From: a virus
Lineage: Duplodnaviria; Heunggongvirae; Uroviricota; Caudoviricetes
Direction: 5' to 3' (one strand)
Length of the DNA: 33,462 bases
IMG/VR virus record: IMGVR_UViG_638341087_000016
Shown in pieces: positions 1 through 28,441 of the stretch. Numbering within the stretch: position 1 is the stretch's first letter; every line of letters starts with the position of its first letter. The notes beneath the pieces were generated by a model, which did no database searches, was not told the DNA's origin, and saw nothing but the letters and a program-made list of their open reading frames with translations. Made by a program: the position numbers and the translations under genes.

Positions 1-966
1 ATGAAGCTATACATCATCGGGAATGGGTTTGATCTGCATCACGAACTTGACACGAGCTATTTCTCATTTGGGGATTATCTTCGGAAGAAAGACCAAGACA
101 TTTACGATCACTTGGTTGATTTTATGGGATTTACTGACTTACCCCCTAAACTTTCCGCAGTTGATAAGTCAAAACATTTTCTTTGGTCTGATTTCGAAAA
201 CAGCTTAGCGGGTCTGGATACAGAGTCAGTGCTCGAAGAGTTTTGCTATCTTTTACCCCAAATTAGCAGCCCTGATTTTCGTGACAAGGACTGGGGCTCA
301 TTAAGCATTGAAATGGAACGTATACTAAAAAATTTAACCGAAGGGCTTTTAACACAATTCAAGTCATTTATATTGCAGGTTAACTACCCCGAACTTAATT
401 TAAATAAAAGATTGCGTATCGATTCTGACTCTATCTTTATCAGTTTTAATTATACTGAGACTCTTCAGAAATACTATGGTATTGATGATAGACAAATTTT
501 ATATATCCATGGAAAAGCATCATCAGATCAACAGTTGATTTTAGGTCATGGTATTGACCCTATCAACTTTGAAGAAAAGGAAGCAGTCCCGCCCGAAAAT
601 GCAACCGATGAAGAACTTGAAGAGTGGCGTCAGTGTATGGCTGATAATTACGATCACTCTTATGAAATGGGAAAGCAGACTATTAATAAATACTTCACTT
701 GTTCTTTTAAGAATACTGAAAAAGTCATTGCTGACAGCGCTAAATTTTTTAAAAATCTCAGCAACGTAGACGAAATCATCATCATCGGCCATTCGTTATC
801 ATCTGTAGATGTTCCCTACTTTTCTTTTATACATAGCATTGTTAGTGAAAATACGGAATGGATAGCCACCTATTATCAGGAAACTGAGCGTGAAGCACAT
901 CATACAACATTATGTGAGATTGGCATTAAATCTCCCAAACTGATTTCAGTAAGTAAACTTCTATAA
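1..966 (+). CDS. AbiH-like abortive infection protein
   Basis: 321-aa ORF beginning MKLYIIGNGFDLHHEL, the N-terminal signature I associate with the AbiH family; AT-rich relative to the phage core. Confidence 0.55.
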   Translation: MKLYIIGNGFDLHHELDTSYFSFGDYLRKKDQDIYDHLVDFMGFTDLPPKLSAVDKSKHFLWSDFENSLAGLDTESVLEEFCYLLPQISSPDFRDKDWGSLSIEMERILKNLTEGLLTQFKSFILQVNYPELNLNKRLRIDSDSIFISFNYTETLQKYYGIDDRQILYIHGKASSDQQLILGHGIDPINFEEKEAVPPENATDEELEEWRQCMADNYDHSYEMGKQTINKYFTCSFKNTEKVIADSAKFFKNLSNVDEIIIIGHSLSSVDVPYFSFIHSIVSENTEWIATYYQETEREAHHTTLCEIGIKSPKLISVSKLL

Positions 967-1550
967 ATAGAACAAAATATCACCCAGAGGGCGGGGGTTT
1001 TTATACGTTCCCCTCCCCCTTAGCTAGAGATCCTTTTATCAAAACTTCGTGCATCATTTTGCAAAACCCAAATCAAAGCAAACTAGCCGCCAGCCCTCAC
1101 CGCACAAGGCTTCACGATATCCGCCCCCGAAAACCATCGGATACCACCTAATCATTTTGATCGTCACGGAAACCAAAACGATCCTTTTAAAAACATCATG
1201 TTATCCAGTCAGTTAGTAGCTGGCGGCGCGATGACTTTTGCAAAGTGCTGCAAATCTTTGCGCAGAGTGCAACGCCCGCAGGATGCAAAAGCCCAGCAGC
1301 GGCGCAGGCTGGCGGGGTGCTTTGCACAAAATTTCTTTTGCAAAATTTTTATGATCCAAACTGCGCAGGCGGGTGCGGTGTAGCGCCGTTTCCGTCCTGG
1401 ATCCGCTTCCGTTTGCCTGCTGTCGCTTACGCTGTGGGCCGCTGTTGAACGAACGAAAGAAAGGCCGCACGGTGGCGACCTTTAATCTTTGCGCCTGCTG
1501 TGGCGCGTTCTGTGGTGTCTGGTGAGGTGTGCGGTTATGCCGCTTTTTTG

Positions 1551-3275
1551 TCAGGCTATCAGGGGGCCGTATTTGCTTTTCAATGTGCCGGTTTTATTGG
1601 CCGTTGCGGTGAACTGCGCCGCCTGCCCACTGGCCCCCGTATTGGGGTGAGTATGTGATGCGGCAGTCTCTGCCAGCTCCCTCACCACGTCCAGGGTGTC
1701 GGTGAGCAGTGTCAGGACGTTAATCTCTTCGCTTCCCAGCTTTACCACCGGGGCAATCAGTTGTTGCGCCTGGGCCACACTTCGGCGAATGCCGCTGATT
1801 TTTTCAGTCAGTGCGCCGCTGACGTTTGACGTGACATCCCCTTTCACGTCGTCTGTAACATTGCCCGCGACATCCCGTTTCACGTTCCGGCCAACACTGA
1901 CGGAATTGTCCTTGCTGCAGGTTACTGTCAGGTTGCCGGATGTGCCGACGCTGTAATCCCCCTCGCTGATATGAACGACCGCCCCGGCCAGAAGTGTGGC
2001 CGTGCCAAGCACGGTTGTTTTATCTGTTGCCTGGACCGTAGTTTCACGGGCAACCACTTTGCGGATCTCTTCGTCGGTGGTGACTTCGCGAGTCATGGAG
2101 TTTTCGCGGATTGTCTGATCCGTCTGGCGTTCCCAGTCTCCGGCAACCGTCACGCGCTGCGATACACCATCGCGCTGTTGCTGCAACTGCTCACCGGGTT
2201 TAACCGCTGGCAGGTTATGACCCTCCGCCATAATCTGACGCACAAAGGGCTTATCCTGCCGCCCCTCAGTGAACCCAACTTCAACCAGCGTGCCAGGGGG
2301 CGGAAACTGAAACATTCCTGACTCGCTGCCCGCCATTGGCACAGGTAGTGGAACGGCAGAATAGATCGGCGTATTTGCGGCTGGCTTGCCGTCTTCGTCA
2401 AGCAGCTGGAGATCCACGGCATAGCGTGGGCGGAATGGATCGGCAATATCCCCCCCTGAAACATCCTCGCTTGGCGCTTCCACCCTAGCGAATCTTGGAA
2501 GATGCAGGCCGCTTGCCAGCTCCGGGAATGCGTTTTCAATCTGCCGCTGAATGGGTGATTTTTGCAATGGCTGGCCGTTGGCTTTGTTGCGGGGCTGCCA
2601 GGTAATTGCCATGTCATCGTTATTTAGCCGGACCTGGTTCAGCCGCTGGCCGTTTACCTCCGCACCCGGGCGCAGGCTCTGAATCATTGGCACAACCATT
2701 GAATTTCCGCCTGCCGATTCCTGGCTAAATTCGTGCGGGATCTCCACTGGTTTTCCCGCAAAAAGACTATGCTCCGCAGCGCCGACGAAGACATCCCCGT
2801 CCGGCAACTGATACCAAAGATAATCCGTCACTGAAAATGCACGGCCCAGACTGGCAAAAAGCTGATAGCCCGTGCCGCTGTGCGTAAAGTGGGGGATCGG
2901 TTTATCTGCATAAGCAGCGCCGACCGGCGTTGTGACGGTCAGCCCGCTTTGCTCACTTATCCAGTCAGTAATCTGGCGCAACGTTGGATGCTGGAAAGAA
3001 CACGGCCACAATTTATCAAAGATGCCGACCAGCTCACGCACGAACAACCGGCATGTTCCATTATCAGCAGGCTGTGACCGTTCGACGTACCCGGTAAACC
3101 AGCGCAGGACCAGACCATCATAACCAACATCGATACGCACCATTTTGCCGGTGTAATCTGTCTCTGTCCCTGCCGTAATAAACCCCCGACCGCACGCGTT
3201 CAGCTCCAGCACGATATTGCAGTCAATCAGATGGACCGGATCAGAGGAAAGGTACAGGCGTTTAATTGGTTTCAT
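1551..3275 (-). CDS. D: Late control gene D-like baseplate hub protein with a C-terminal spike-like extension
   Basis: 574 aa; N-terminal region has the gpD-type VGYDG...FTGYVE pattern; C-terminal region has short repeats and an SHTHPNTG motif resembling spike apex HxH motifs; ATG start and TGA stop verified. Confidence 0.65.
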   Translation of the reverse strand: MKPIKRLYLSSDPVHLIDCNIVLELNACGRGFITAGTETDYTGKMVRIDVGYDGLVLRWFTGYVERSQPADNGTCRLFVRELVGIFDKLWPCSFQHPTLRQITDWISEQSGLTVTTPVGAAYADKPIPHFTHSGTGYQLFASLGRAFSVTDYLWYQLPDGDVFVGAAEHSLFAGKPVEIPHEFSQESAGGNSMVVPMIQSLRPGAEVNGQRLNQVRLNNDDMAITWQPRNKANGQPLQKSPIQRQIENAFPELASGLHLPRFARVEAPSEDVSGGDIADPFRPRYAVDLQLLDEDGKPAANTPIYSAVPLPVPMAGSESGMFQFPPPGTLVEVGFTEGRQDKPFVRQIMAEGHNLPAVKPGEQLQQQRDGVSQRVTVAGDWERQTDQTIRENSMTREVTTDEEIRKVVARETTVQATDKTTVLGTATLLAGAVVHISEGDYSVGTSGNLTVTCSKDNSVSVGRNVKRDVAGNVTDDVKGDVTSNVSGALTEKISGIRRSVAQAQQLIAPVVKLGSEEINVLTLLTDTLDVVRELAETAASHTHPNTGASGQAAQFTATANKTGTLKSKYGPLIA

Positions 3276-3282
3276 CGTTTAA

Positions 3283-3825
3283 TTACCCCAGCGCATCGTT
3301 GACCGGCTTTAAGACCTTTTCTTCAAACCAGCTCATTTTGTCGGCTGGCTCATCAGCTCCGGCAGCCGGACCCGCGCCCTTTGCCCCTGTTTGCTTGGTG
3401 CTGGCCGTCGCGTTGCCTTTTCGGGCCTGTCGTTTTTCCGGGACGCTGCCTTTTTCACGCAGGGTGAAACTTACCTGCCAGGCAAGGCGATCCTCCTGCG
3501 GTACGGCATCAATCTGACCGGTAAACGTGGCTTCACGAAGGTTGATAGCCGTCGCCGTCGCATTGGCGACGCGGTACTTTTTCAGTGCGCCGCTGGCTTC
3601 GGTCGCGGATGCCAGCTGGAAAAGCCGCTGTAAGACGGCTTCGTCGTCGAATGTCACCAGACCCGATACGCGCAGCTCTTTGGCCTTGATACCCTGTTCA
3701 GCATTGGCCGTGCTCGATGTCTGGCCCGACTGGTCCTTTTCCTGAAACTGCATGGAAGGTGAAACCAGCATGTTCTGCATGGCGATCCCTTCACCATCAA
3801 GCGCGAGTAATGCGGTCTGGCTCAT
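3283..3825 (-). CDS. Hypothetical phage tail/baseplate-associated protein
   Basis: 180-aa ORF in the tail operon, GC-rich like the phage core, Ala/Gly/Thr-rich; overlaps the upstream gene by 29 nt unless an internal Met is used. Confidence 0.4.
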   Translation of the reverse strand: MSQTALLALDGEGIAMQNMLVSPSMQFQEKDQSGQTSSTANAEQGIKAKELRVSGLVTFDDEAVLQRLFQLASATEASGALKKYRVANATATAINLREATFTGQIDAVPQEDRLAWQVSFTLREKGSVPEKRQARKGNATASTKQTGAKGAGPAAGADEPADKMSWFEEKVLKPVNDALG

Positions 3826-5108: not shown

Positions 5109-7072
5109 CAGGCAAGCCTCACAATGTAGTTAAACGCAATATTTTTAACGGTATTTTCCGCATTTCCTGCGGCATGAACGGTCGCTGTATGTCCGTGATA
5201 GCCCATAACCACATAATGGTTATGCGCACCAATACCCACCCAGTGATCATGAGGGCCGATCCATGTCACATGAGCATGATTACCGCTTCCCTCAATGCGA
5301 TCTCCCGCCGCCCATGAAACATTAGACGAATGCATCCCCAGCCCCTGACCGGGGGTATCCCGGTATGCAGACGTTGCGCAATAACGAAAGTTATGTGCGT
5401 GCCACCCACCCTCAGTGGAGGATTTATTGCCGTAGTCAAAACTGGTTGTTGGTTTTGAACCATAATCAAAAGAGCTGGTGTATTTCGTCCCCAAATCGGT
5501 ATCGGAAATACTGGCTCCGTGGGTATGCGATATAACACCATCCTGTTCATACGAGAGTACCGCGCGACCGTTCGGTTTACCCTTAATCGTCTGGCCTCGC
5601 ATGTCCGGGATAATCCCCGCAGGATAGGCAATCGCTAGCAATGGATAGACCGCTTTATCAAAGGGCTGCCCCTGCATTAAGGCGTACCCTGTCGGGGTAA
5701 CATCCGATGGCCAGGGGATAGGTGCGCCGACAGGGTAAGAATCTTCTGGCATCCACGGCGTCCATGCCAGCGTTGAATACTTGCTGCGCGAATAACTGCG
5801 CGAGCTGTTGTACACACGATAAACCTGAGTGACTCCGGCACCTCTCAGTACCATCAGAGAACCCGCGCTATTCTCCGGGTAATTCATTGCTGCACTGGTA
5901 TTGTTGTTCGCTTCCTGAAAATAAAGCCCCGGTACCTGGTAATCATCCAGATTCTTATTTGCACCAATCGCTATAACCTGGCCGTCAAAAATATCCCGTG
6001 AAGTGACATTGATATCTCCATTCAGGGCATGGCCGTTCACTTTTCGTGATGCCGGAACGCGGCCATTTGCATTCTCATTCACCGCTTTTAATGCTTTTGG
6101 CGTGACGGCCATCGCTTCGGAATCACTGTTCGTTTCACTGCTTAACCGCACAAAACCCTTTTCACTGGTTGATGCATCAGGGTGATTTCGGGATTGTTCA
6201 TGCTTTTTCAGCGCATCGCTGGCCGCCTGGTCATTTAGCGTGCCTTTCGGGCGCAGGTCAGTGATATTTCCGGCAGCATCAATACTCGCCACCGCAAAGA
6301 CATAATGCTGCACACCGCCCAGCACATAATCGGCAAGATCTGCAGCAACAGTAATTTTGCTCTGTACAGCCCATTCGCTTGTTAACGTCCCGGTCCAGCT
6401 CACATCAAGCCAGATTTTTGTCGGTTTCGCGGATACTGTGATATTGAAGTTTGCGGGCAATTCGGCACGCAATCCGGCGACATATCCCGCCCCCTTTGTG
6501 ACAAAAAACTGATTGCCGGACTTTGCGACCAGATAGCCCGAATCAAAAAATGCCGCTGCGCCATACAGATCGATATTTTCCCGGCGCTGGCGTTCATCCA
6601 TTCCCACCAGTCGGGCAGTAAAATCAATCTGCCATGTCTCTGCCGGAGTGTTAATTTCGGTCGCTTCCCTGGCTCCGCTGTATTCCATCAGCATGGAACG
6701 AACAAGAACGTTTCCCTGCTGACCGTCTGCGTTTTTAATTTTTCGTTGGGTCGGGGCGTGAATAATCATCGCCAGTGTACCCGTTGCCTTATTTGCCAGC
6801 CCGATCCAGTTGAAATCAAAATCGCCCACATCCGCCCCCAGGGTAACGGAATAAACGACAGAGTTTTCATTCACAACACCGGCTTTATTCACCGCCTGAC
6901 GACAAACTATTTTATCTTCCGCTGGCGTTGTTTCAGTATTATTAATCGGCTTGTCAGCATCCAGCCCCGGAATATAAGCAAAAATAAACTCATCCAGCGT
7001 GACGGGCTGGTTATTAATTGCCTGCTGGGCTTTCCACTCTGCAAATGCTTTTGTAATGACGGCCTGTGACAT
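5108..7072 (-). CDS. Tail fibre protein (gpH-like N-terminus, His-rich C-terminal tip)
   Basis: 654 aa; conserved N-terminus and a C-terminal region with [30 protein letters not shown] histidine motifs typical of distal fibre tips. Confidence 0.8.
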
Positions 7073-7083
7073 TAATATTCCCT

Positions 7084-7683
7084 CTACTTCAAACTTGCGC
7101 TATATGTTGCTTCTGACTGGTTATTCACATCGCCCAGGGTGGCAGGCCAGCAAATATATTCCCCCTGATACCAGCCAATATTGATATTCAGTGGCAGGGT
7201 GTCGATTACTTCAAACTGGTAACGGCGGCATGTGCGCCCATATTTGCGAATGATTTCCAGCAGGAGATCGCCATTTTCCGCAACCTGGCTGCTTGTCACT
7301 CGAACGACAATCACGTCCCAGTCGAGTCCGTCCTGCCGTTCCAGTAATTCAACGTAACCAATCCCCAGTCGCTCAAAAATGGCAATAAAGCCCGCCACCT
7401 CTCCGGCCTGCTGCGCATTGATAAATGCGTAACTCACCCGCTTGCGGAAGATGTCGAGCGGCTCCCCCTTAAACCGATCGATGTCGCGCTCCCAGGCAAT
7501 CAGGTTCAACAGCGGCTCAGGGCAAACCAGCGGGTCAAACTGCTTTAACGGCCAGGTGATCCACCCGTACACCTGCGACCAGAACTTCACGCTGCCACGC
7601 AACAGCCTGGCGGGGTCGCCTTTGTTCAGCCACGACGGCAATTTCAGACCGGAAAGCAACTTCGAAAACTCAGTCATTTTCAA
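7084..7683 (-). CDS. Tail protein I-like (Mu gp48 / DUF2313-type)
   Basis: 199-aa ORF between the baseplate J-like gene and the fibre gene, the conserved position of this family. Confidence 0.6.
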
Positions 7684-8854: not shown

Positions 8855-9182
8855 AGTTAACCTCTGTACTGACAGGGCCGAAATCGTAGGTTTCCGCCGT
8901 GATATACAACCTCGAAAGGGTTTCTTCGGTGATCACTATGGTTCCTGGGACCAGACGTTCGTCGCTTTCCACCAGTAAGGACAGTTGCGTCAGCACGTCA
9001 CCGCGCATTGTCGGGCTGCGTTCACCGATCAGGCGGGTGGTGATACCGCTTTCCAGAATGCTGTGAATAATGTCCTGGGTGATGCTGTCGCGGTTATCGC
9101 AACGGCGCGGCTCGTTGCCGCTGTCCAGCGTGAAATCGCCGTCAGTGATCAAAAGGTCGATGTATAACGGTTCGGTACTCAT
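8847..9182 (-). CDS. Small baseplate protein (gpW/gp25-like or Mu gp46-like)
   Basis: 111-aa ORF immediately upstream of the J-like gene with start/stop overlaps. Confidence 0.5.
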   Translation of the reverse strand: MSTEPLYIDLLITDGDFTLDSGNEPRRCDNRDSITQDIIHSILESGITTRLIGERSPTMRGDVLTQLSLLVESDERLVPGTIVITEETLSRLYITAETYDFGPVSTEVNYD

Positions 9183-10570
9183 CCTGCGTTAAGCTCCTGC
9201 CATTCAGCCAGCTGGGCCGGGGTGATTCCATTGGGGGCGTTGATGTAGGTATCGCCCCACGTTTTACGGTTATCAACAGCGGTTTTGCTGTCGTTTTTAA
9301 CCTGACTCATCAGGCCGCCGCGTGGGATGCCTGCATTAATTCGGTTCCCCGTCAGCACGGACGGGCTGTTTAGCTTCGATGAACCTGCAGCACTGTCAGG
9401 AATGACCGCATTTGCCGGAACGGCAGCCGCTGCCGGTGGCGAAACGGTTTTCAGGTCGATGTTTACGCCGGGGATCTTGTTTAACTTCTCGACAATCCAG
9501 TTATAGGTAGACGCAAAGGTATTTTTGAGGACGTCAAAAAGTTTGCTGAATACCCCGCCGATGGTTTGTGCGAACCCTTCAAAGGTGGCAAGCGGGGAAA
9601 GACCGGCAAAGAAATCAACCACCACGGCCCAGCCGTCTGTGATGGACTGCCAGACCTGCGCAAACACCTGGCCTACCTGTTCAGCGACCGACATCACCCA
9701 GGCAAAAGCCGACGTATCCATGATTGCTGCCGCCAGTTCTTCCCAGTGGGTGATGACATACCAGACCCCCACGGCCAGAAGTGCCAGCCCGGCAACGATC
9801 AGAGTGATCGGACTCATCAGGAGTTGCATTGCCGCCCCGGCAAACATGGTCGCCGCACCGTAAACCCGCATGGCAATGGCTCCGGCCTTTAACGCGATAT
9901 TCCATGCAGCAAGCGCGATGCGGCAGACGCCCGTCCACAGCGCCAGTAATTTTGACTGGATCCACAATGCAGCCAGACCGATGCGCGTCGTCAGCAGGAA
10001 CGGACGCAACAGGTTGAGCGTCCATAACAGGAGTTTCCATGCCCCGCCCAGCACTTTTGCAATTGCGGCCAGCCCTGTCATGGTGAAGCCAAAGACCCCC
10101 ATCACGATATTGACCGCCGCCCCAGCCAACCCGAAGGACAGCACGCCCAGGGTGATGTAACCCAGCCAGCGGGCAATATTCGGGAACATATCCAGCCAGC
10201 GGGCAAATTTTGTCCCTACGTCGGCAATACGGTTCATCAGCGGCGACAGGATAGGGAACAGCGTGTTACCAATCGCCACGCGAATGGCAAAGAATGTCGC
10301 TTTGATACGTTCCCACGGCTCAGCCATTCGTTCGGCCATTTCCTGGGCGCGTTTCATCCCGTCATTTCGGCCCAGCTCGGTGATGCTGCGGTTTAATTTA
10401 TCCTGCTGGCCGTACAGCTTTTTGATAACGTCAGCACCACCACCGAACGCGGCATCCAGCGCCTGTTGTGCCTTGACGTTCCCTTCAATGCTCTGCCCGT
10501 ATTTGTTCTGGAGTTTTTGCAGAATGTCGCCCATCGGCAGCATTTTTCCGGTGGCATCGACAAAGCTCAT
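9179..10570 (-). CDS. Tail tape measure protein, C-terminal portion (downstream of the in-frame TAG)
   Basis: 463 aa with hydrophobic Gly/Ala-rich segments typical of tape measure proteins; the frame stays open upstream from 10570 to 10732. Confidence 0.7.
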   Translation of the reverse strand: MSFVDATGKMLPMGDILQKLQNKYGQSIEGNVKAQQALDAAFGGGADVIKKLYGQQDKLNRSITELGRNDGMKRAQEMAERMAEPWERIKATFFAIRVAIGNTLFPILSPLMNRIADVGTKFARWLDMFPNIARWLGYITLGVLSFGLAGAAVNIVMGVFGFTMTGLAAIAKVLGGAWKLLLWTLNLLRPFLLTTRIGLAALWIQSKLLALWTGVCRIALAAWNIALKAGAIAMRVYGAATMFAGAAMQLLMSPITLIVAGLALLAVGVWYVITHWEELAAAIMDTSAFAWVMSVAEQVGQVFAQVWQSITDGWAVVVDFFAGLSPLATFEGFAQTIGGVFSKLFDVLKNTFASTYNWIVEKLNKIPGVNIDLKTVSPPAAAAVPANAVIPDSAAGSSKLNSPSVLTGNRINAGIPRGGLMSQVKNDSKTAVDNRKTWGDTYINAPNGITPAQLAEWQELNAG

Positions 10571-10732
10571 ACCCAGCTTTTCAGCGGCAGCCGGGGCGCT
10601 GCGTAAAAACTGCTCGTAGATCCCGCTGGCCTCAGTACCCAGCGTGCGCGAAAGCGTACCCAGTACGGCGAACTGTTCATCCAGGCTGACGCCAAAGTCA
10701 GCACCGGCGCTTTTCGTCCCCTCGATAAGCTC

Positions 10733-11293
10733 CTACATGGTCTGCATTTTCACGCCGAAGTTTTGCACCATGTACGCCGTTTTTCCTGCCAGCTCTTCGG
10801 CAAAACGCACATGCCCCAGACTGGACAATTCCGCGTTGAAACGTGACGCCATCGCGCCGATGTATTCGCCTGCCTCTTCGCCGCTGGCCTTGACGCCTGC
10901 GGCCAGGGTATTGGCCGCGATGGTAACGCGGGGCAGGTCCAGATCGGACAGGCCCGCCATTGCGCCTTTCATCGCGTAGCTTGACCGGACCACATCAACG
11001 GCCCCTTTGCCGTAGCGCATACTGAATCGCATGGCTTCGCCGGACATACGCTTCAGCGCGTCCTCTGCTACGCCTTTGGAACCCACTTCTGCAAGCGCGG
11101 CGTTCATCTCATACGCCGGACCCACCACGCCCGCGATGGACTGCGCCACGCCCCAGACAGCCGCCGCACCAATCCCGATTTTTGTAAAAGACTCCTGCGA
11201 TTTTTCAGCAAAGCCAGACAGCGAAGACTGGGCCGTCTTTAATGGCCGCGTCAGCTTATCGATCAGGCTCAGGGTAAAATCCAGGTGGCTCAT
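10733..11293 (-). CDS. Tail tape measure protein, N-terminal portion ending at an in-frame TAG
   Basis: 186 aa in the same frame as 9179-10570; TAG at 10733-10735 verified from the sequence; ATG at 11291-11293. Confidence 0.7.
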   Translation of the reverse strand: MSHLDFTLSLIDKLTRPLKTAQSSLSGFAEKSQESFTKIGIGAAAVWGVAQSIAGVVGPAYEMNAALAEVGSKGVAEDALKRMSGEAMRFSMRYGKGAVDVVRSSYAMKGAMAGLSDLDLPRVTIAANTLAAGVKASGEEAGEYIGAMASRFNAELSSLGHVRFAEELAGKTAYMVQNFGVKMQTM

Positions 11294-21028: not shown

Positions 21029-22086
21029 CAAAGAAACAGCGTAATAATAAAAAATTCAGGTCCATGACCGGCAGCAAGGTTGAATCCTTCACGCCAGGGC
21101 GCGGAAGCGTGATCACATTTGGCGAACCCGAACCCATCCTGACGACCGGCACTGATTATCACAATATCTGGTATGACAATGAGTATGACCACTGGCGACT
21201 CCCGATTGATCGCCTGGCGCTGGCCCAGTTGCCGAACCTTAACGGCCAGCACGGTGGGGTACTGTATGCGCGGCGCAATATGGTTGCCGGTGGCTACATC
21301 GGCGGCGGCCTGACGCCTGACCAGGTCGAACAGGCTGTCTTTGATTACCTGCTGTTTGGTGACGTCGCTATCCTGAAAATTCGTAACGTATTCGGGGAAG
21401 TGATCGACCTGCTGCCGCTGCCGTCGCTGTATCTGCGCTGCCGAAAAGACGGGGCGTTTGCTGTTTTGCAGGAAGGGCCAGCACTTATCTATGAACCGGA
21501 AGACATCGTCTTTTTTAAAATGTACGACCCGCGCCAGCAGGTGTACGGCCTGCCTGACTATATCGGCGGCATCCATTCGGTGTTACTCAACAGTGAGGCA
21601 ACCATCTTCCGACGCCGTTACTACAATAATGGGGCACATATGGGCTTTATTCTCTATACCAGCGATCCGAATCTTACGCTGGAAATGGAAAATGAAATCA
21701 AAGAGAAGATCGCCCAGTCCAAAGGGCTGGGTAACTTCCGAAATATGTTTATCAACATCCCGAAGGGCGACCCGGAAGGGGTTAAAATCATGCCAGTGGG
21801 TGAAGTCAGCGCAAAGGATGAATTTGCCAACATCAAAGGGATAACCGCGCAGGATATCTTTACCGCCCACCGTTTCCCCGCTGGCCTGGCGGGTATCATC
21901 CCGACCAACGGCGCGGTAATGGGCAACCCTGAAACCGCCCGCACAACCTATCGCAAGGATGAAGTTATCCCCTTGCAGCGCAAGCTAATGAACGGCGTCA
22001 ATAATGACCCGGAGATCCCCGCACACTTGCACCTGGTTTTTGACGTGGATATCCCGGCAATTGCCACCGAAAAGGGCGAAAAATGA
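21025..22086 (+). CDS. Q: Portal protein Q
   Basis: 353 aa, P2 gpQ-like, downstream of P with an ATGA overlap. Confidence 0.85.
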   Translation: MTKKQRNNKKFRSMTGSKVESFTPGRGSVITFGEPEPILTTGTDYHNIWYDNEYDHWRLPIDRLALAQLPNLNGQHGGVLYARRNMVAGGYIGGGLTPDQVEQAVFDYLLFGDVAILKIRNVFGEVIDLLPLPSLYLRCRKDGAFAVLQEGPALIYEPEDIVFFKMYDPRQQVYGLPDYIGGIHSVLLNSEATIFRRRYYNNGAHMGFILYTSDPNLTLEMENEIKEKIAQSKGLGNFRNMFINIPKGDPEGVKIMPVGEVSAKDEFANIKGITAQDIFTAHRFPAGLAGIIPTNGAVMGNPETARTTYRKDEVIPLQRKLMNGVNNDPEIPAHLHLVFDVDIPAIATEKGEK

Positions 22087-22409
22087 GCGCAGTTAAGTTA
22101 AAATCCCCCCCATTATTAGCAATGGCGTGCGGGATGGTGAACATGCGAGTTTTTAAAATTAAATGTCCTGAATGCGGCTCACCGGCCATCATTCGCAAAT
22201 CTGACTGGAAAGATAAAAAACTGGCGTCTTTATACTGTGGCTGCACAGAAGTGGAATGTGGTCATACATTTGTTTATAGCGTTGAGTTTTCACATACCCT
22301 CAGCCCCAGCGGGCTGACCGGCAACAAGCTGGTTAAATTCCTGATTGACCGGCTCAAGCCGGAAGAACGTCAATTCGCGCTGGACCTGCTCAGTGGGCAA
22401 ACTACATAA
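22083..22409 (+). CDS. ogr: Ogr/Delta-family zinc-finger late transcription activator (candidate)
   Basis: KCPECG...YCGCTEVECGHTF Cys motif resembling P2 Ogr; start overlaps the Q stop in ATGA; the short form would start at ATG 22143. Confidence 0.6.
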   Translation: MSAVKLKSPPLLAMACGMVNMRVFKIKCPECGSPAIIRKSDWKDKKLASLYCGCTEVECGHTFVYSVEFSHTLSPSGLTGNKLVKFLIDRLKPEERQFALDLLSGQTT

Positions 22410-22671: not shown

Positions 22672-25464
22672 TTAATCTGAAAGTTCACCAATATCATCCA
22701 TTGGTTTTTTATCATTAAAAGATAGACGAAGTTTTTGTTCATGTAATGCAGTGATTTTTTTACAACTATCTACAGAAATATAATAAAACGACAAGCCATC
22801 GTTATTAATAAATTCCAAATTAATCCTAATAGACATCAGCGCGTACATCAATGGATTTTCATCCTTGAAATTATACAACCCCTTAACTAAGGAAATATTC
22901 TCATCAGAAATACTTTCAATTTTCAAATCAAATAAATTAGTATTCCGCAGACAGGAAAATACGCTCAAAAAATCCATGTAGTAAAGACCAGGAGACCCCA
23001 AACCCAAAACTCCTTTTGAATCTGTTATTCTCATACCTTTTGAGTAACGGTAAACACTTGCCTCTCCTTTAACCATGTAATGAATTGTTATAAGCTTATC
23101 GGAAGGTAGTTCACTTACATCTTCGATCTCATTTACATCTTTATATTGGCCTTTAATTCCATCAAGCATTTTATGAAGCCAAGCATAGACAAACACTTCA
23201 GCATGATGTGAACTATTCATTGAATAATGCACTTTATCAATTGACTGCAAGACTTCTCTCTTATTAATCAATGAATAGAATGGATTGCAGACAACTGAAT
23301 TTGACACAGGAATAGAATCAATATCTACGAATTTATTAAAATACCCACCTAATGATATTGATACTTTATCTATGTATTTATTAACCAGAACCTTATCAAG
23401 GTCAGAAGAAACAATAGAATTTGCGATTAATTCATTTTTTACAGAAATTATACTTTCAAGATGCTCTGCAACCTCCATCCGATTTGTTTCTTGAGAAGAT
23501 CCTTCATTAATCAACTCTAATAAAGCTGAAAATTCATCACCTTTCAAATATGATATAAGTGATTGCAGTTCATGAGTTGTTATTTTTGTATTTTTAATAA
23601 ACTCTTTTTTATTACGTATAAAAATAGGATTGAGGTTGTTTTTATTAAATAATGTTTGAGTCATTAAAAGGGATACTGCTTTGAAAGCATCGTTATTTAT
23701 TGAAAAGGTTGCAACCTCATAATCAGGTATATCTCTTAAAGTTCTACTTGCATCAAAATCAGGTTCAGATGGGACTGTAAATATAACATCATACACGCCA
23801 CTCTTATAAAAAAGATCTTCTAGGAATGAAGGTGCTAACCATTTCATTAAATTCTGTTTTATTATTCTCAATTCCTCCTGATGCCCATCACTTTTTTCAG
23901 ATAAATAGCACAGCCTAATAATCAGTAAAGTTATAACCTGTCTTACACACGATACCATCTTGTTCTCAATGATACTAAGGGTTTCGCCATCATCAGATGA
24001 CTCTGGATAACGAAATTTCTCAGTCAAGAATCGAGTATTCAGGCTAAATGCCAAATAATTCTTTGACAAGATGTTGTCTCTCACCGTTGACATATATAAA
24101 TCAAAAAAACGATATTCTGGATCACCTAAACTATATTGAGCACGATGTTCCAATGACGGTGATATCAATTTATAAAATTCATCATATTGCTCATTATCAT
24201 AAATATACCTTCCCAAATCCATAATCGATCGAAGAGCATCACACACTATATTATAGTTTTTATACCCACTCACTTCAGAACTAACCTTCATATAAAAAGC
24301 AGCAAAAATTGAATACTCTATATTATTTTTTTTGTTAGTATAACCAAAAGAGTGATTGAGGTTATGTATTACTTTAACTAATTCAGTTTCACTAACTAAT
24401 GTGAAGATAGCTCTTATGCTAAAATCTAACGCTAACTCATTACCACTAAAAAGACTATTTCTTAAGCTAATAACTACTGCATCTTCATACTTACCGTAAT
24501 TCAAGAAGCTTTCAGGAGCTGAACTGAACACCAATCCTTTTTTCAATAGTTTTGTAACATTACTAATTAATAGCTCATCGATCGACGCTCCATCTTGCAC
24601 TTCAATATGAACCGATGAGGTTGATAGTGGATATATAAAGTTAAGATTCACGCGTAAATCAGTACGTACCACTTTCGAAAAACGCTCTAGCTCATTGTTA
24701 ATTTCTTTAAAGCAAATTGGACAAAAATCATTAATAATGACATTTTGATTATTTTGGAAAATATTTAACTTACGTTGTTCTTTATTGATAAAATCGGAAT
24801 CCCACCCATAATGAATATATTCAAAATCATTAATCATGTTTAAAAATTTATTTTCTATAGTTCTTCTACGTTCGTCAATCAATAAATAATCATTTTTAGC
24901 CTTATCAAGCTCAAAAAATAAACGATCAGTTATTATAGTTGGATTCTCAGTAACATTATATAATTTCAGATACATTGAACCATAATTAAAAATAAAGTAT
25001 AACGATACAAAAATGGATATAGCATAAGTAATCATGCCGCCACCACATGAAAGCAATACGATACCACTTAAAAGACTAAAAATAGAATTTAAACTAAACT
25101 TTAAAAAACTAGTTTTCCGCAACAACATCGACTTACAAATATTTTCAAAGCCATGTTCAGAATAATTAGAAACCTGACTAACAAACATTCCCATAAATGT
25201 AATTGATAGTGCAGCAATAGTTCCATGTATGCCTAAAACTCCCGCCCAAACACTAGTAGTCCAATTCAATGGGGAATTATTGAGAAAAGATGGTGTTACA
25301 AGTAAATACTTTACCCCTTCATCAACATATCTAGAGTAGATTACACCGGAAATACCCAACCCGACCAGAATAAAGTAGATCAAGAAGATAATTATAACTT
25401 CCCTATTTATACTTAAAAAACCATTATTAAAAATAATTTTTCTTTCCAAAATCAGACCCCACAT
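22672..25464 (-). CDS. Large membrane-anchored protein of unknown function; candidate single-gene anti-phage cargo
   Basis: 930-aa ORF with ATG start; about four N-terminal hydrophobic helices in residues 20-160 and a roughly 770-aa soluble region; very AT-rich coding sequence; no Walker A or other motif recognised by eye. Confidence 0.8.
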   Translation of the reverse strand: MWGLILERKIIFNNGFLSINREVIIIFLIYFILVGLGISGVIYSRYVDEGVKYLLVTPSFLNNSPLNWTTSVWAGVLGIHGTIAALSITFMGMFVSQVSNYSEHGFENICKSMLLRKTSFLKFSLNSIFSLLSGIVLLSCGGGMITYAISIFVSLYFIFNYGSMYLKLYNVTENPTIITDRLFFELDKAKNDYLLIDERRRTIENKFLNMINDFEYIHYGWDSDFINKEQRKLNIFQNNQNVIINDFCPICFKEINNELERFSKVVRTDLRVNLNFIYPLSTSSVHIEVQDGASIDELLISNVTKLLKKGLVFSSAPESFLNYGKYEDAVVISLRNSLFSGNELALDFSIRAIFTLVSETELVKVIHNLNHSFGYTNKKNNIEYSIFAAFYMKVSSEVSGYKNYNIVCDALRSIMDLGRYIYDNEQYDEFYKLISPSLEHRAQYSLGDPEYRFFDLYMSTVRDNILSKNYLAFSLNTRFLTEKFRYPESSDDGETLSIIENKMVSCVRQVITLLIIRLCYLSEKSDGHQEELRIIKQNLMKWLAPSFLEDLFYKSGVYDVIFTVPSEPDFDASRTLRDIPDYEVATFSINNDAFKAVSLLMTQTLFNKNNLNPIFIRNKKEFIKNTKITTHELQSLISYLKGDEFSALLELINEGSSQETNRMEVAEHLESIISVKNELIANSIVSSDLDKVLVNKYIDKVSISLGGYFNKFVDIDSIPVSNSVVCNPFYSLINKREVLQSIDKVHYSMNSSHHAEVFVYAWLHKMLDGIKGQYKDVNEIEDVSELPSDKLITIHYMVKGEASVYRYSKGMRITDSKGVLGLGSPGLYYMDFLSVFSCLRNTNLFDLKIESISDENISLVKGLYNFKDENPLMYALMSIRINLEFINNDGLSFYYISVDSCKKITALHEQKLRLSFNDKKPMDDIGELSD

Positions 25465-25828: not shown

Positions 25829-28441
25829 TCATTCTTTAGGGTAGCGACCTTCCGCACCCGCCAGCATTTTTTGATATTCCCAGACCGGATCAAACCGCAG
25901 GTGCGTGGCATCAATGCCGTGGTTATCCCGTAAATGTTCCCATAATTTATTCACCGTCCGTGACTCATTAGGTAATTGACGCGTTATCAACTGGCCGCCA
26001 GCACTGGCTTGATAAAATTTCCCGCCAATCTCCAGACGGCTCCCCATTAACAGCGAAACGGCCTGAATCTCTGAAATCTCAACCAAACACAACGCCGCAT
26101 CAGCCAGCAGACTGGCAACCGCAGGGGCAAGCGCTGCCCGCCTGGCTTTATCAGCCACCGATCTGGCCTCGGTTTTTTCCACGGCAGAACGCCAGGCAAC
26201 ATCTAATTCGCTCCCTGGTTCATAAGGTGATCCGCTGTGCCGCCTTTTGAATGGTGCTTCACGTAGTCGCCGTATCAATTTGCGCCGCGTTGGCTGGTCC
26301 ATATTTTCAAAATCGACGATTTCCTCTTCTGATTCTTCTGTAATACCCTCCACACCAGGCGAAAAATCGGTGATTTTTTCGTCTTCCGTAGAGTTATTGA
26401 CAGAACTCCAAGCGTCGCCGGTTGGCGACGGCAAAAGGTCAACCCCCAAACCGGGGCCGCTTTTGGCCCCAGTGACGGTTTTGGATTTGGCTCGAATTTT
26501 CCACTTAACCAGACGGGTGCAAATACGGGAGGCATCCCCCAGACGCGGCGACCAGACCCCGAAAACCTTTTCGGGGATCTCACAATAAGCATTCATTTCA
26601 TCAGCGGGCTGATAGGCCAGACGGACGACATAGTTTTCTCGCGGGATCAAAACACCACCCTGGCGGATGATGTAAGTAGCAAAGCATCCGACATCGGCAG
26701 CGGCGCAAACCGCATCCATTGCAGGATCCACAAGCAATGGCGCACCACGTTTGAAGGTACTGTCAATTTTCTGTCGGGTCGTGATCTGATTACTAAGTTT
26801 GCGCAGCTCGCGGTAAACCGATATGGGCGGCTGTCCGATGGGCTGAAACTGGCGGATACGGTGAAGCGATGCCCAGGCCATTGCATATTTGGCGCTTTCA
26901 TTCAGCGGCTTGCCGCTTTCGTCGTCCAGTTCACCGGCCAGCGCGTGGCCGTCGATATTCTTCGAAATGTATTTAGCGATGTATGCCGTTGCTGACCCTT
27001 TCCGTGGGTCCATTTTTTTTGACTTGAAACGAGCGCCGGTATTGCGGCCCAGCTCGTCGCGGTCTTCCGCAATGAAGTAGGTGCGAAGGATCGCAACCGT
27101 GGCTTTGACTTGCTCTTGTGGCATAAACAGCAACGCGTGCCAGTGTGGTGTCCCATCGTGATGCGGCTCGGCGACACGGAAGCCATAAGGGCGCAAATCT
27201 TCGCGTTTCAGTTTGGCGGTTGCCCGGTTCCACACACGGCATAAATAGCACTGCGCCTGGGCGACGGTGGAATGATTCCATTTGGCGTTATGGTGGCCGG
27301 ATGCAATATTACTGTGATATTTCGACGGGCAAGTGATTGTCAGGAAGATGCCAACATCGCCGCGACTTTGGGCAACAAGCTCAACCCCAGCCATTCGGGC
27401 CATAAGCTCATGGCGACGAATAGCCGGGTTTGACGTGGATTTATTAATCATGTCCTCAAGTGAGGAAACGTTGCCGTCTTCGTCTACCAGTTCATGACTT
27501 TTGAAAAAATCCCGGTTTTTACGGCGCTGTTCCTGCCACTCGATCAGGCTGGAAGCGCTAACGTATGCGTGCGCTTTTTTATTTACCGCGCCAACGGCTC
27601 GCAGCTGGTTTTCGCGCCAGTCACAACGCAGGCGCCAGATTTTGCGCCCCCACCAGTCAGGCGAAGCCATACGCAAAATGGCCGTACATATCCGATCACG
27701 TTCCCACGGCGCATACCATGCAGGCGGCACAATGCGAAGCGCCAGCATTTCGCGGCCCAGATGACAATAAAGCCAGTCCAGTTCTTCGACGTTCATGTCG
27801 GAAACATTCTGTCCCAGGGCTTCGCATTCCGTCCCCAGCATTTCAGCCATGCGGCTGGCGATCTCATTAGCGGCGCTTAGTGCTTCCCGCTTTGTGAAAT
27901 CAGCCAGCCGTTGCCAGCGCCCGAACCAGTACGCGGCCAGTTCGCCGGTGATATCAGGCGAAACACCTTGCCTTGTGCGCACAACATCAAGACGCAGCAA
28001 TGATTTTTTCACTGTCCCCATAAGAAAATCATTGGTGTGTCTGGTTTCACGGTTGACCCGTAACCACTCAATTTTTTTACGCCAGACTTCACGAATGAAG
28101 AACGGCTCTGATAATAAACGTGCTTCGACACCTTCTGGCGTATTGGCCCAGGCTGCCGCCGTGGCTTTAGCGGCTTCCATTTCTTGCCGGATTATATTTT
28201 GATGGGCGGCCAGTGGCAGGCCGCATGGTTCGTACCTGTCCAGCGCCTGGATGAGCGCATCACGGTCACGAACTTCGGCGGGATTGTAACCGGCACGTTT
28301 GAAGATGTGATCGATATGTTTTTTTACGGCAGGATGATGCGCCACCGCCCCAGCAAGCGGGGCGATTTTTTTCGGTTCATAGATGTACGGGCCAACAGCT
28401 GGACGCGGTGCGTTCCAAGGCCATGCGAAAGCGTTAGTCAT
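25829..28441 (-). CDS. A: Replication initiation protein A (rolling-circle nickase)
   Basis: 870 aa containing ATAYIAKYISKNIDG, the active-site tyrosine motif of P2 gpA-type initiators. Confidence 0.85.
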   Translation of the reverse strand: MTNAFAWPWNAPRPAVGPYIYEPKKIAPLAGAVAHHPAVKKHIDHIFKRAGYNPAEVRDRDALIQALDRYEPCGLPLAAHQNIIRQEMEAAKATAAAWANTPEGVEARLLSEPFFIREVWRKKIEWLRVNRETRHTNDFLMGTVKKSLLRLDVVRTRQGVSPDITGELAAYWFGRWQRLADFTKREALSAANEIASRMAEMLGTECEALGQNVSDMNVEELDWLYCHLGREMLALRIVPPAWYAPWERDRICTAILRMASPDWWGRKIWRLRCDWRENQLRAVGAVNKKAHAYVSASSLIEWQEQRRKNRDFFKSHELVDEDGNVSSLEDMINKSTSNPAIRRHELMARMAGVELVAQSRGDVGIFLTITCPSKYHSNIASGHHNAKWNHSTVAQAQCYLCRVWNRATAKLKREDLRPYGFRVAEPHHDGTPHWHALLFMPQEQVKATVAILRTYFIAEDRDELGRNTGARFKSKKMDPRKGSATAYIAKYISKNIDGHALAGELDDESGKPLNESAKYAMAWASLHRIRQFQPIGQPPISVYRELRKLSNQITTRQKIDSTFKRGAPLLVDPAMDAVCAAADVGCFATYIIRQGGVLIPRENYVVRLAYQPADEMNAYCEIPEKVFGVWSPRLGDASRICTRLVKWKIRAKSKTVTGAKSGPGLGVDLLPSPTGDAWSSVNNSTEDEKITDFSPGVEGITEESEEEIVDFENMDQPTRRKLIRRLREAPFKRRHSGSPYEPGSELDVAWRSAVEKTEARSVADKARRAALAPAVASLLADAALCLVEISEIQAVSLLMGSRLEIGGKFYQASAGGQLITRQLPNESRTVNKLWEHLRDNHGIDATHLRFDPVWEYQKMLAGAEGRYPKE

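Follow-up and report, generated by a model that had tools for sequence, protein, structure and literature searches.

A contractile phage tail needs a central spike, and in the tail module of IMGVR_UViG_638341087_000016, a stretch of viral DNA of 33,462 nucleotides (the window), no separate spike gene of the gpV type is evident. The locus at positions 1551-3275 raises the question of whether its product supplies the spike as part of a larger protein. A preliminary description, made from the DNA letters, had proposed that this product is a gpD-like baseplate hub with a spike-like C-terminal extension, a fusion of hub and spike as found in VgrG. Our analysis indicates that the product of the gene is very probably the entire central spike complex of a contractile tail of the HP1 type, made as a single polypeptide that would trimerise. 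The fusion as such is not new, since HP1 orf35 was footnoted as a fused gpD/gpV homologue in 2023 (Table S1, footnote d; PMC10612066), and the present case is useful context and no surprise.

A 574-residue protein encoded at the end of the tail operon

The gene is an ATG-to-stop open reading frame (ORF) on the minus strand (1551-3275, 574 amino acids, stop codon at 1551-1553), as judged from the ORF list and the translation; the plus strand across the same interval is full of stops. Length and position agree with the preliminary description, in which the strand was absent. Residues 1-574 align to profile positions 1-544 of 544 of phrog_2258, a 'baseplate protein' family (E 2.9e-276), and residues 240-571 also match PHROG 4011, a 'baseplate protein' profile of 315 positions. 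The protein is an orthologue of gp24 of Salmonella phage SI7 (genus Irrigatiovirus; 97% identity) and of HP1 orf35 (41% identity to orf35 of HP1 and HP2, with 100% of the query covered for HP1 orf35 in tblastn). Identity is 63-65% to proteins of the ESSI-2 group and of Yersinia phages and 34-40% to those of K139, Kappa, phiO18P and F108. Family members carry the database names 'phage baseplate assembly protein V', 'Gp5/Type VI secretion system Vgr protein OB-fold domain-containing protein' and 'Phage late control gene D protein'.

The window is a prophage, an HP1-type member of the P2-like phages (Peduoviridae), and contains genes for terminase, portal, capsid, sheath, gpA, integrase and ogr. 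According to Pfam and PHROG assignments, its minus-strand tail operon starts with sheath (DUF2586) and tube (HP1 Orf24), followed by holin, endolysin, spanin and tape measure, continues with a DUF2590 protein, gpJ-like and gpI-like wedge proteins, a tail fibre and a fibre assembly protein, and ends with a phrog_1677 protein (HP1 orf33-like), an HP1_ORF34 family protein and the hub-spike gene, which is last. The order of fibre, fibre assembly, phrog_1677, HP1_ORF34 and hub-spike gene agrees with that in HP1, K139, phiO18P and SI7.

The predicted structure joins a hub to a spike

An alignment of 97 sequences with 33-97% identity to the query was used as input for AlphaFold2, which gave a monomer model with a mean predicted local distance difference test score (pLDDT) of 85.2 and a predicted template modelling score of 0.60. 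The N-terminal domain, residues 1 to about 230, is rich in beta structure and contains an alpha/beta insertion (pLDDT 90-96). It is followed by two short helices (241-254) and an OB-type set of strands (261-384). Residues 385-515 form a long extended segment that has no intramolecular secondary structure (pLDDT 81-87), as is expected of one strand of an intertwined trimer.

In a Foldseek search of the PDB, the best matches to the model were full-length fused spikes, headed by T6SS (type VI secretion system) VgrG 9jg9 (E 1.6e-18) and followed by Photorhabdus Pvc8, Algoriphagus Alg8, the Anabaena and Streptomyces spikes of extracellular contractile injection systems (eCIS), Afp8, VgrS and VgrG1. 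Values for Pvc8, Alg8, Afp8 and VgrG1 ranged from E 1e-18 to 1e-13, and the fused-spike matches extended over 574-686 alignment columns; the full-length alignments to VgrG 9jg9, 8gra, 4mtk and 9mlp place a gp27-like and a gp5-like module in one chain. Proteins matching the hub only ranked second (PhiTE, Mu gp44, MuSo2, Pa193, E217, P1 and pyocin R2), and proteins matching the spike only ranked third (Mu gp45, P2 gpV 3qr8 with a template modelling score, normalised to the target, of 0.77, and the R2 pyocin spike). A search of the viral structure database BFVD returned generic hub proteins only and no close family member. Since fused, hub-only and spike-only proteins are all matched at the level of fold, the chain consists of a hub joined to a complete spike. 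The full-length fold matches, together with the weak, colinear OB-fold and Gp5 profile matches described below, support the proposal of a VgrG-like fusion.

That VgrG and eCIS spikes are the best structural matches, and that the UniRef name of one family member is 'Actin cross-linking toxin VgrG1', might suggest that the protein is a VgrG-type cargo of a T6SS or eCIS and not part of the phage's own tail. The genomic setting argues otherwise: the gene is the last of a syntenic tail operon that is conserved in the isolated phages SI7, HP1, HP2, K139, phiO18P and ESSI-2, and the window is free of T6SS or eCIS genes. The protein reaches 16.9 bits with the VgrG model TIGR01646, for which the cut-off is 121.8, and it ends in an HxH apex of its own where VgrG would have a blunt PAAR-binding end. 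We regard the cargo explanation as very unlikely.

The hub part and the junction

Residues 1-230 (2586-3275, minus strand) form a minimal baseplate hub domain of the gp27/gpD/Mu gp44 type; in the predicted structure this part has the gp27/gp44-type hub fold, and structure comparison pairs only 219 of the 325 Mu gp44 residues with residues of this part. A hub PHROG also matches residues 25-144 weakly. The gpD character that the preliminary description attributed to the N-terminal part holds at the level of fold but is not visible in the sequence, since at E <= 0.1 the Pfam family Phage_GPD matched neither the window protein nor any of 56 family members. The comparison with P2 gpD, given there as about 390 amino acids, was sound (387 in the record). 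The extent of the extension had to be revised: instead of the last 180 residues or so, the non-hub part starts at about residue 241 and comprises about 330 residues, which leaves a hub of only about 230.

The fusion junction (residues 231-258; 2502-2585, minus strand) was located from alignments and consists of the linker QPRNKANGQPLQKSP followed by a conserved N-terminal helix and an FPELxxGxHLPxF motif. The helix and FPELxGxxHLPxF motif with which stand-alone spikes open correspond to residues 243-262, approximately, of the window protein. Fused forms carry a dedicated linker of about 15 amino acids, and split forms are without it.

The spike part: a probable OB-fold and beta-helix

The hub is followed by a probable OB-fold domain of the gp5/gpV/VgrG type (residues 259-385; 2121-2501, minus strand), supported by matches to Pfam, TIGR01646 and PDB profiles and by beta strands at 260-383 in the model. 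Phage_base_V matches 39 of 56 family members at E <= 0.1 (best E 9e-6), and Gp5_trimer_C, Gp5_C and 'GpV Apex motif' match 25, nine and three of the 56, respectively. In the window protein, Gp5_C and Gp5_trimer_C match residues 451-498 weakly, and residues 420-505 match T4 gp5 beta-helix chains in the PDB; the T4 gp5 helix matches of the protein and of a family profile together range over E 0.003-0.1. A profile of seven family sequences found T4 gp5 in the PDB at E 0.003 and Pseudomonas aeruginosa VgrG1 (4mtk) at E 0.011, with query residues 312-468 colinear with VgrG residues 414-573; the VgrG of enteroaggregative Escherichia coli (6sjl) was also among the PDB profile matches. As judged from sequence profiles, the links of the protein to named families are weak yet colinear.

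Residues 386-515 (1731-2120, minus strand) are assigned to one strand of a triple-stranded beta-helix on the basis of a period of eight residues, the T4 gp5 and Gp5 matches, the length classes of orthologues and the extended conformation in the model. The short repeats mentioned in the preliminary description are more than chance: residue-class autocorrelation over residues 384-515 gave z = 4.5 at period 8 and z = 2.6 at period 16 against shuffles. The core of the octapeptide repeats spans residues 440-503, approximately (window 1767-1958), and reads in rows of eight DYSVGTSG / NLTVTCSK / DNSVSVGR / NVKRDVAG / NVTDDVKG / DVTSNVSG / ALTEKISG / IRRSVAQA; the repeat NVKRDVAGNVTDDVKGDVTSNVSG occupies residues 464-487 (window 1815-1886). 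No tandem repeat was found at the DNA level at the repeat region. Judging by this periodicity, the repeats are best described as octapeptide beta-helix repeats of the gp5/VgrG type. In the alignment, the equivalents of residues 431-514 fall into length classes of 45, 53, 61, 69, 77 and 84-85 residues, that is, in steps of eight, which indicates that closely related prophages differ by complete turns of eight residues, added to or lost from the beta-helix of the spike. The window protein belongs to the longest class, with 84 residues between the anchor positions compared to 45 in HP1.

The HxH apex

The C-terminal part (residues 516-574; 1554-1730, minus strand) is modelled as a helix (522-540), the HxH motif, a second helix (552-572) and a conserved P-I/L-I end (pLDDT 81-91). 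The motif SHTHPNTG forms residues 540-547, with H541-T-H543 at window 1647-1655, at a distance of 32-34 residues from the C-terminus. Of the 97 relatives, 94 retain H541 and H543, and the three exceptions carry a different, Cys-rich end. The C-terminus of P2 gpV is LHTHKHPGDSGGTTGSPL, and one family member carries QHTHPGDSGGTTGKP. H197 and H199 of P2 gpV are the histidine cage that binds Fe (10.1101/2023.02.25.529910). H541 and H543 are placed in the same way and probably correspond to this cage, and the likeness to metal-binding apex motifs noted in the preliminary description was well founded; metal binding by the window protein is predicted by analogy. P2 mutants that correspond to H541A and H543A are mild in phenotype. 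An HxH motif close to the C-terminal end is an accepted signature of an apex-bearing spike without a separate tip protein (10.1101/2023.02.25.529910; PMC12407873), and the spike complex has been defined as hub, spike and an optional tip, with HxH spikes lacking a tip protein (PMC12407873). Both predicted apex helices show conserved hydrophobic residues with a spacing of 3-4 (positions 520/521, 523/524, 527/528, 530/531 and 534 in the first; 555, 562, 565, 569 and 572/573 in the second), a spacing that would suit a helical-hairpin bundle with HxH at the turn.

Some relatives, both fused and split, have a short Cys-rich end (…NGGxGVxxGxxICxFTGKPH…) in place of the beta-helix and the HxH tip; these are yong1 (6666-7536), the family members P0317 and P0318, and three rows of the alignment. 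In yong1, the Cys-rich spike gene is followed by an extra gene of 65 amino acids named 'baseplate assembly protein V', the product of which ends in …HPII, comparable to the PII end of the HxH-type proteins. The Cys-rich ends and the extra yong1 gene suggest that the tip module was swapped and may involve a separate tip protein.

The C-terminal part could alternatively be a decoration or a fibre-like domain on an ordinary long hub of the gpD family, and not the central spike. HxH cages also occur in phage fibres and tailspikes (10.1101/2023.02.25.529910), and the spike-family sequence matches of the window protein are below threshold. Nevertheless, the order of OB-fold, beta-helix and C-terminal HxH in the model is that of gpV and gp5, and the model matches Mu gp45, P2 gpV and the R2 pyocin spike. 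Homologues of residues 241-574 that exist as separate proteins carry spike annotations and are also detected as spikes. Moreover, the window contains no other spike gene: Pfam and PHROG scans of 20 tail-module ORFs gave no other match to Phage_base_V, Gp5 or PAAR, NCBIfam added none, tblastn of P2 gpV, gpD, gpU, gpX and gpW and of both halves of the protein against the window detected no second hub or spike, and no T6SS or PAAR genes were found in the window. We consider a fibre-like extension highly improbable. On structure prediction and domain search the C-terminal region has a spike fold and is not part of an ordinary extended gpD, and the absence of a separate spike gene from the tail module was correctly described. 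The hub-spike fusion explains why no gpV gene is found in HP1-type genomes.

Fused and split relatives

In related phages the spike is indeed encoded separately. In yong1 (gp46/gp47), SMHB1 (gp48/gp49), ACA1 (gp48/gp49) and phi3 the locus holds two genes, and the spike starts exactly at the junction; the hubs are 228-234 and the spikes 223-323 amino acids long. The two ORFs overlap by 10-28 nucleotides in these four split relatives, always with the spike in the -1 frame (positions 6666-6675 in locus L001, 3648-3657 in L008, 6627-6654 in L002 and 3684-3699 in L006). Programmed frameshifting was considered for the split relatives; no slippery heptamer was seen, and overlapping, translationally coupled genes are the simpler reading. 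For phi3 (KT887559), the GenBank record lacks an annotation of the 232-amino-acid hub ORF (3001-3699) upstream of the 'Gp5 domain-containing protein', and the authors of ACA1 note the same omission of the hub for phage C5a (PMC10612066).

An exhaustive comparison with 1.84 billion cluster representatives identified 683 relatives at E <= 1e-3. The best 150 of these comprise 13 fused forms, 74 stand-alone spikes, 11 stand-alone hubs and 52 fragments. The stand-alone spikes begin at about query residue 241, and 64 of the 74 have the C-terminal HxH. In a neighbour-joining tree of the OB region, which was midpoint-rooted, had no bootstrap and does not fix polarity, the fused forms essentially make up one clade and a minimum of two state changes is required. 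The fused state marks one clade (Enterobacteriaceae, Pasteurellaceae, Aeromonas and the Vibrio K139 group), and most relatives keep two adjacent overlapping genes.

The overlap of the split genes by 10-28 nucleotides, with the spike in the -1 frame, means that a single indel could join them, so that the long ORF might be an artefact of a frameshift in sequencing or assembly. The fused architecture is present, across several bacterial families, in more than 1,000 database proteins of 530-581 amino acids, and the nearest 90% cluster alone contains 594 member sequences with 400 contigs recorded. The linker of the fused forms, absent from the split forms, also argues against an accidental joining. 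The clade-wide distribution makes the fusion a stable, lineage-wide character and not an assembly artefact, an explanation to which we give almost no weight.

A further alternative is that the fused chain is a precursor, which would be cleaved in the linker (about residues 228-245) in the course of assembly or later. Hub and spike would then be separate proteins in the virion, as they are in P2, and the spike could part from the hub when the cell is penetrated. Most relatives make two proteins that are split at this very point, the linker is poorly conserved, and of the P2 proteins concerned only the spike is translocated to the periplasm (PMC12407873). Against this, neither a protease site nor a protease partner was identified, VgrG and the eCIS spikes function as fusions without cleavage, and the linker region is not disordered in the model (pLDDT about 78-84). 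Processing of the linker therefore appears unlikely to us, though less so than the explanations by cargo, fibre-like extension or artefact.

A model for the fused spike complex

In the P2 baseplate, three gpD hub subunits have six gpU tube initiator subunits above and three gpV spike subunits below (10.64898/2026.09.14.750843). From established knowledge on T4 gp27-gp5, P2 gpD/gpV, Mu gp44/gp45 and VgrG, the window protein is inferred to trimerise, to bind metal, to have its place in the baseplate and to act in piercing. On this basis, three copies of the protein would make a hub ring and a needle in one piece, on the axis of the baseplate. The hub (residues 1-230) would dock under the tube initiator and the tape measure and be encircled by the gpJ and gpI wedges encoded upstream. 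Residues 241-385, approximately, would provide the N-terminal helix and OB-fold of a gpV/gp5-type spike, and each chain would contribute, with residues 386-515, approximately, one strand of the intertwined triple beta-helix of octapeptide repeats. Upon contraction of the sheath, the tube would drive the needle through the outer membrane. With the plug bound covalently to the hub, DNA could exit only after the whole trimer had left the tip of the tube or the chain had been processed.

Several points weigh against a hub and spike acting as one polypeptide in this prophage. The Pfam model Phage_base_V matches the window protein at residues 310-345 only below its gathering score (E 0.004; 17.8 bits compared to 23.8), and the subthreshold TIGR01646 match covers residues 313-363 only. 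Comparison with hhalign of the family profile of 97 sequences with the single sequence of P2 gpD gave a probability of 0.4%, and with that of P2 gpV no signal; these nulls do not speak against homology, because at about 10% identity a profile compared with one sequence has too little power. Mu gp44 and P2 gpD exceed the hub in length by about 100 residues: the hub has about 230 residues compared to a full gpD-family complement of about 330-390, and the stand-alone hub relatives have 225-244. The structural evidence is a single predicted monomer, and the putative trimer, beta-helix and metal site lie outside it. The predicted helix-HxH-helix apex is unlike the mostly beta apex of P2 gpV, which comprises only 21 residues and is not known to have such flanking helices. 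In the literature, no experimental or structural study of any fused member, including virion proteomics, was found. Finally, the tape measure gene of the window prophage (9179-11293, minus strand) has an amber codon, so the fusion protein may not be in use here. The codon lies in frame at 10733-10735 after codon 186 (…VKMQTM-TAG-ELIEG…). The SI7 tape measure has CAG (Gln) at this site, and the 704-codon gene is otherwise gap-free and 96% identical. The amber codon reflects either a defective prophage or a sequencing error.

Neighbouring genes

A terminator-like hairpin with a T-run, found as a pattern match in a consensus scan, lies about 70 nucleotides past the stop codon of the hub-spike gene (1460-1483, minus strand) and probably closes the tail operon; in the record of K139, the orthologous gene is followed immediately by an annotated rho-independent terminator. 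The upstream neighbour (3283-3825, minus strand) encodes a protein of 180 amino acids of the HP1_ORF34 family (PF25759, E 1e-53). This protein is a candidate, if an uncertain one, for a gpU-like tube initiator that would sit on the hub: the annotators of ACA1 note that size and syntenic position resemble those of P2 gpU and regard homology as uncertain (PMC10612066). PDB sequence searches with the ORF33-like and ORF34-like neighbours gave no match.

Just past the 3' end of the hub-spike gene and convergent to it is a gene for an AbiH abortive-infection family protein (1-966, plus strand; Pfam E 2e-60, PADLOC E 2e-29), the ORF of which touches the start of the window. SI7 lacks such a gene at this position, and the AbiH gene has the appearance of defence cargo placed where the tail operon ends. 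An ORF of 930 amino acids (22672-25464, minus strand), situated between the ogr-like gene (22083-22409) and gpA (25829-28441), has no match in Pfam or PADLOC. No gene of this size is annotated in SI7, and the ORF may be an uncharacterised accessory or defence gene.

Comparison with known spike complexes

The closest counterparts of the window protein are HP1 orf35 (P51739), HP2 orf35, K139 orf39, Kappa kp45, phiO18P gp46, the ESSI-2 protein and SI7 gp24, which belong to the same family (PHROG 2258) and share its length class, last position in the operon, domain order and HxH motif; they differ only in the number of octapeptide turns of the beta-helix. The assignment as hub, spike and tip in one settles the annotation of a widespread 'hypothetical' or 'baseplate' protein in HP1-type prophages of Salmonella, Citrobacter, Enterobacter, Yersinia, Vibrio, Aeromonas and Pasteurellaceae.

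In the split relatives yong1, Salinivibrio SMHB1, Pseudoalteromonas ACA1 and Pseudomonas phi3, both halves are homologous at 29-38% identity, at the same genomic position and with the same hub of about 228 amino acids. The spikes of SMHB1, ACA1 and phi3 keep the HxH tip, whereas yong1-type spikes have the short Cys-rich end. Cyanophage Pam3, of an unrelated phage lineage, has a hub (gp19, 229 amino acids) and a spike (gp20) as separate proteins. With their fused and split genes, the sister lineages offer a natural experiment on whether DNA delivery requires the spike to come off the hub and on the cost or gain of a covalent link.

The folds of both halves match those of P2 gpD (387 amino acids) and gpV (211 amino acids, with an Fe-loaded apex), of Mu gp44 and gp45, and of the R2 pyocin hub and spike, and P2 gpV shares the HxH apex. 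The presumed role in the baseplate also agrees with that of gpD and gpV in the P2 structure. In P2, however, gpD and gpV come from two genes that belong to different operons and are separated by about 12 kb, sequence similarity to the window protein is not detectable, and the hubs of P2 and Mu are about 100-150 residues longer.

T6SS VgrG and the eCIS spikes (Pvc8, Afp8 and Alg8) have hub and spike in one chain, but sequence identity to them is only 11-14% and the hub of the window protein is about 130 residues shorter. The protein falls outside the curated families VgrG (NCBIfam TIGR01646) and Phage_GPD. VgrG has a blunt tip that is capped by a separate PAAR protein (PMC12407873), whereas the window protein ends in its own HxH apex, and, unlike VgrG, it belongs to a phage tail, through which DNA has to pass as well. 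It is possible, although we put this forward only tentatively, that the HP1-type complex is the most condensed spike complex known, that its tip is an undescribed variant with the HxH cage at the turn of a helical hairpin and a six-helix bundle in the trimer, and that the whole hub-spike trimer leaves the end of the tube as VgrG does with Hcp, or that the linker is cleaved. Hub, spike and tip are partitioned differently among these systems: all three are separate in T4, spike and tip are fused in P2, hub and spike are fused in VgrG, and the HP1 group combines all three.

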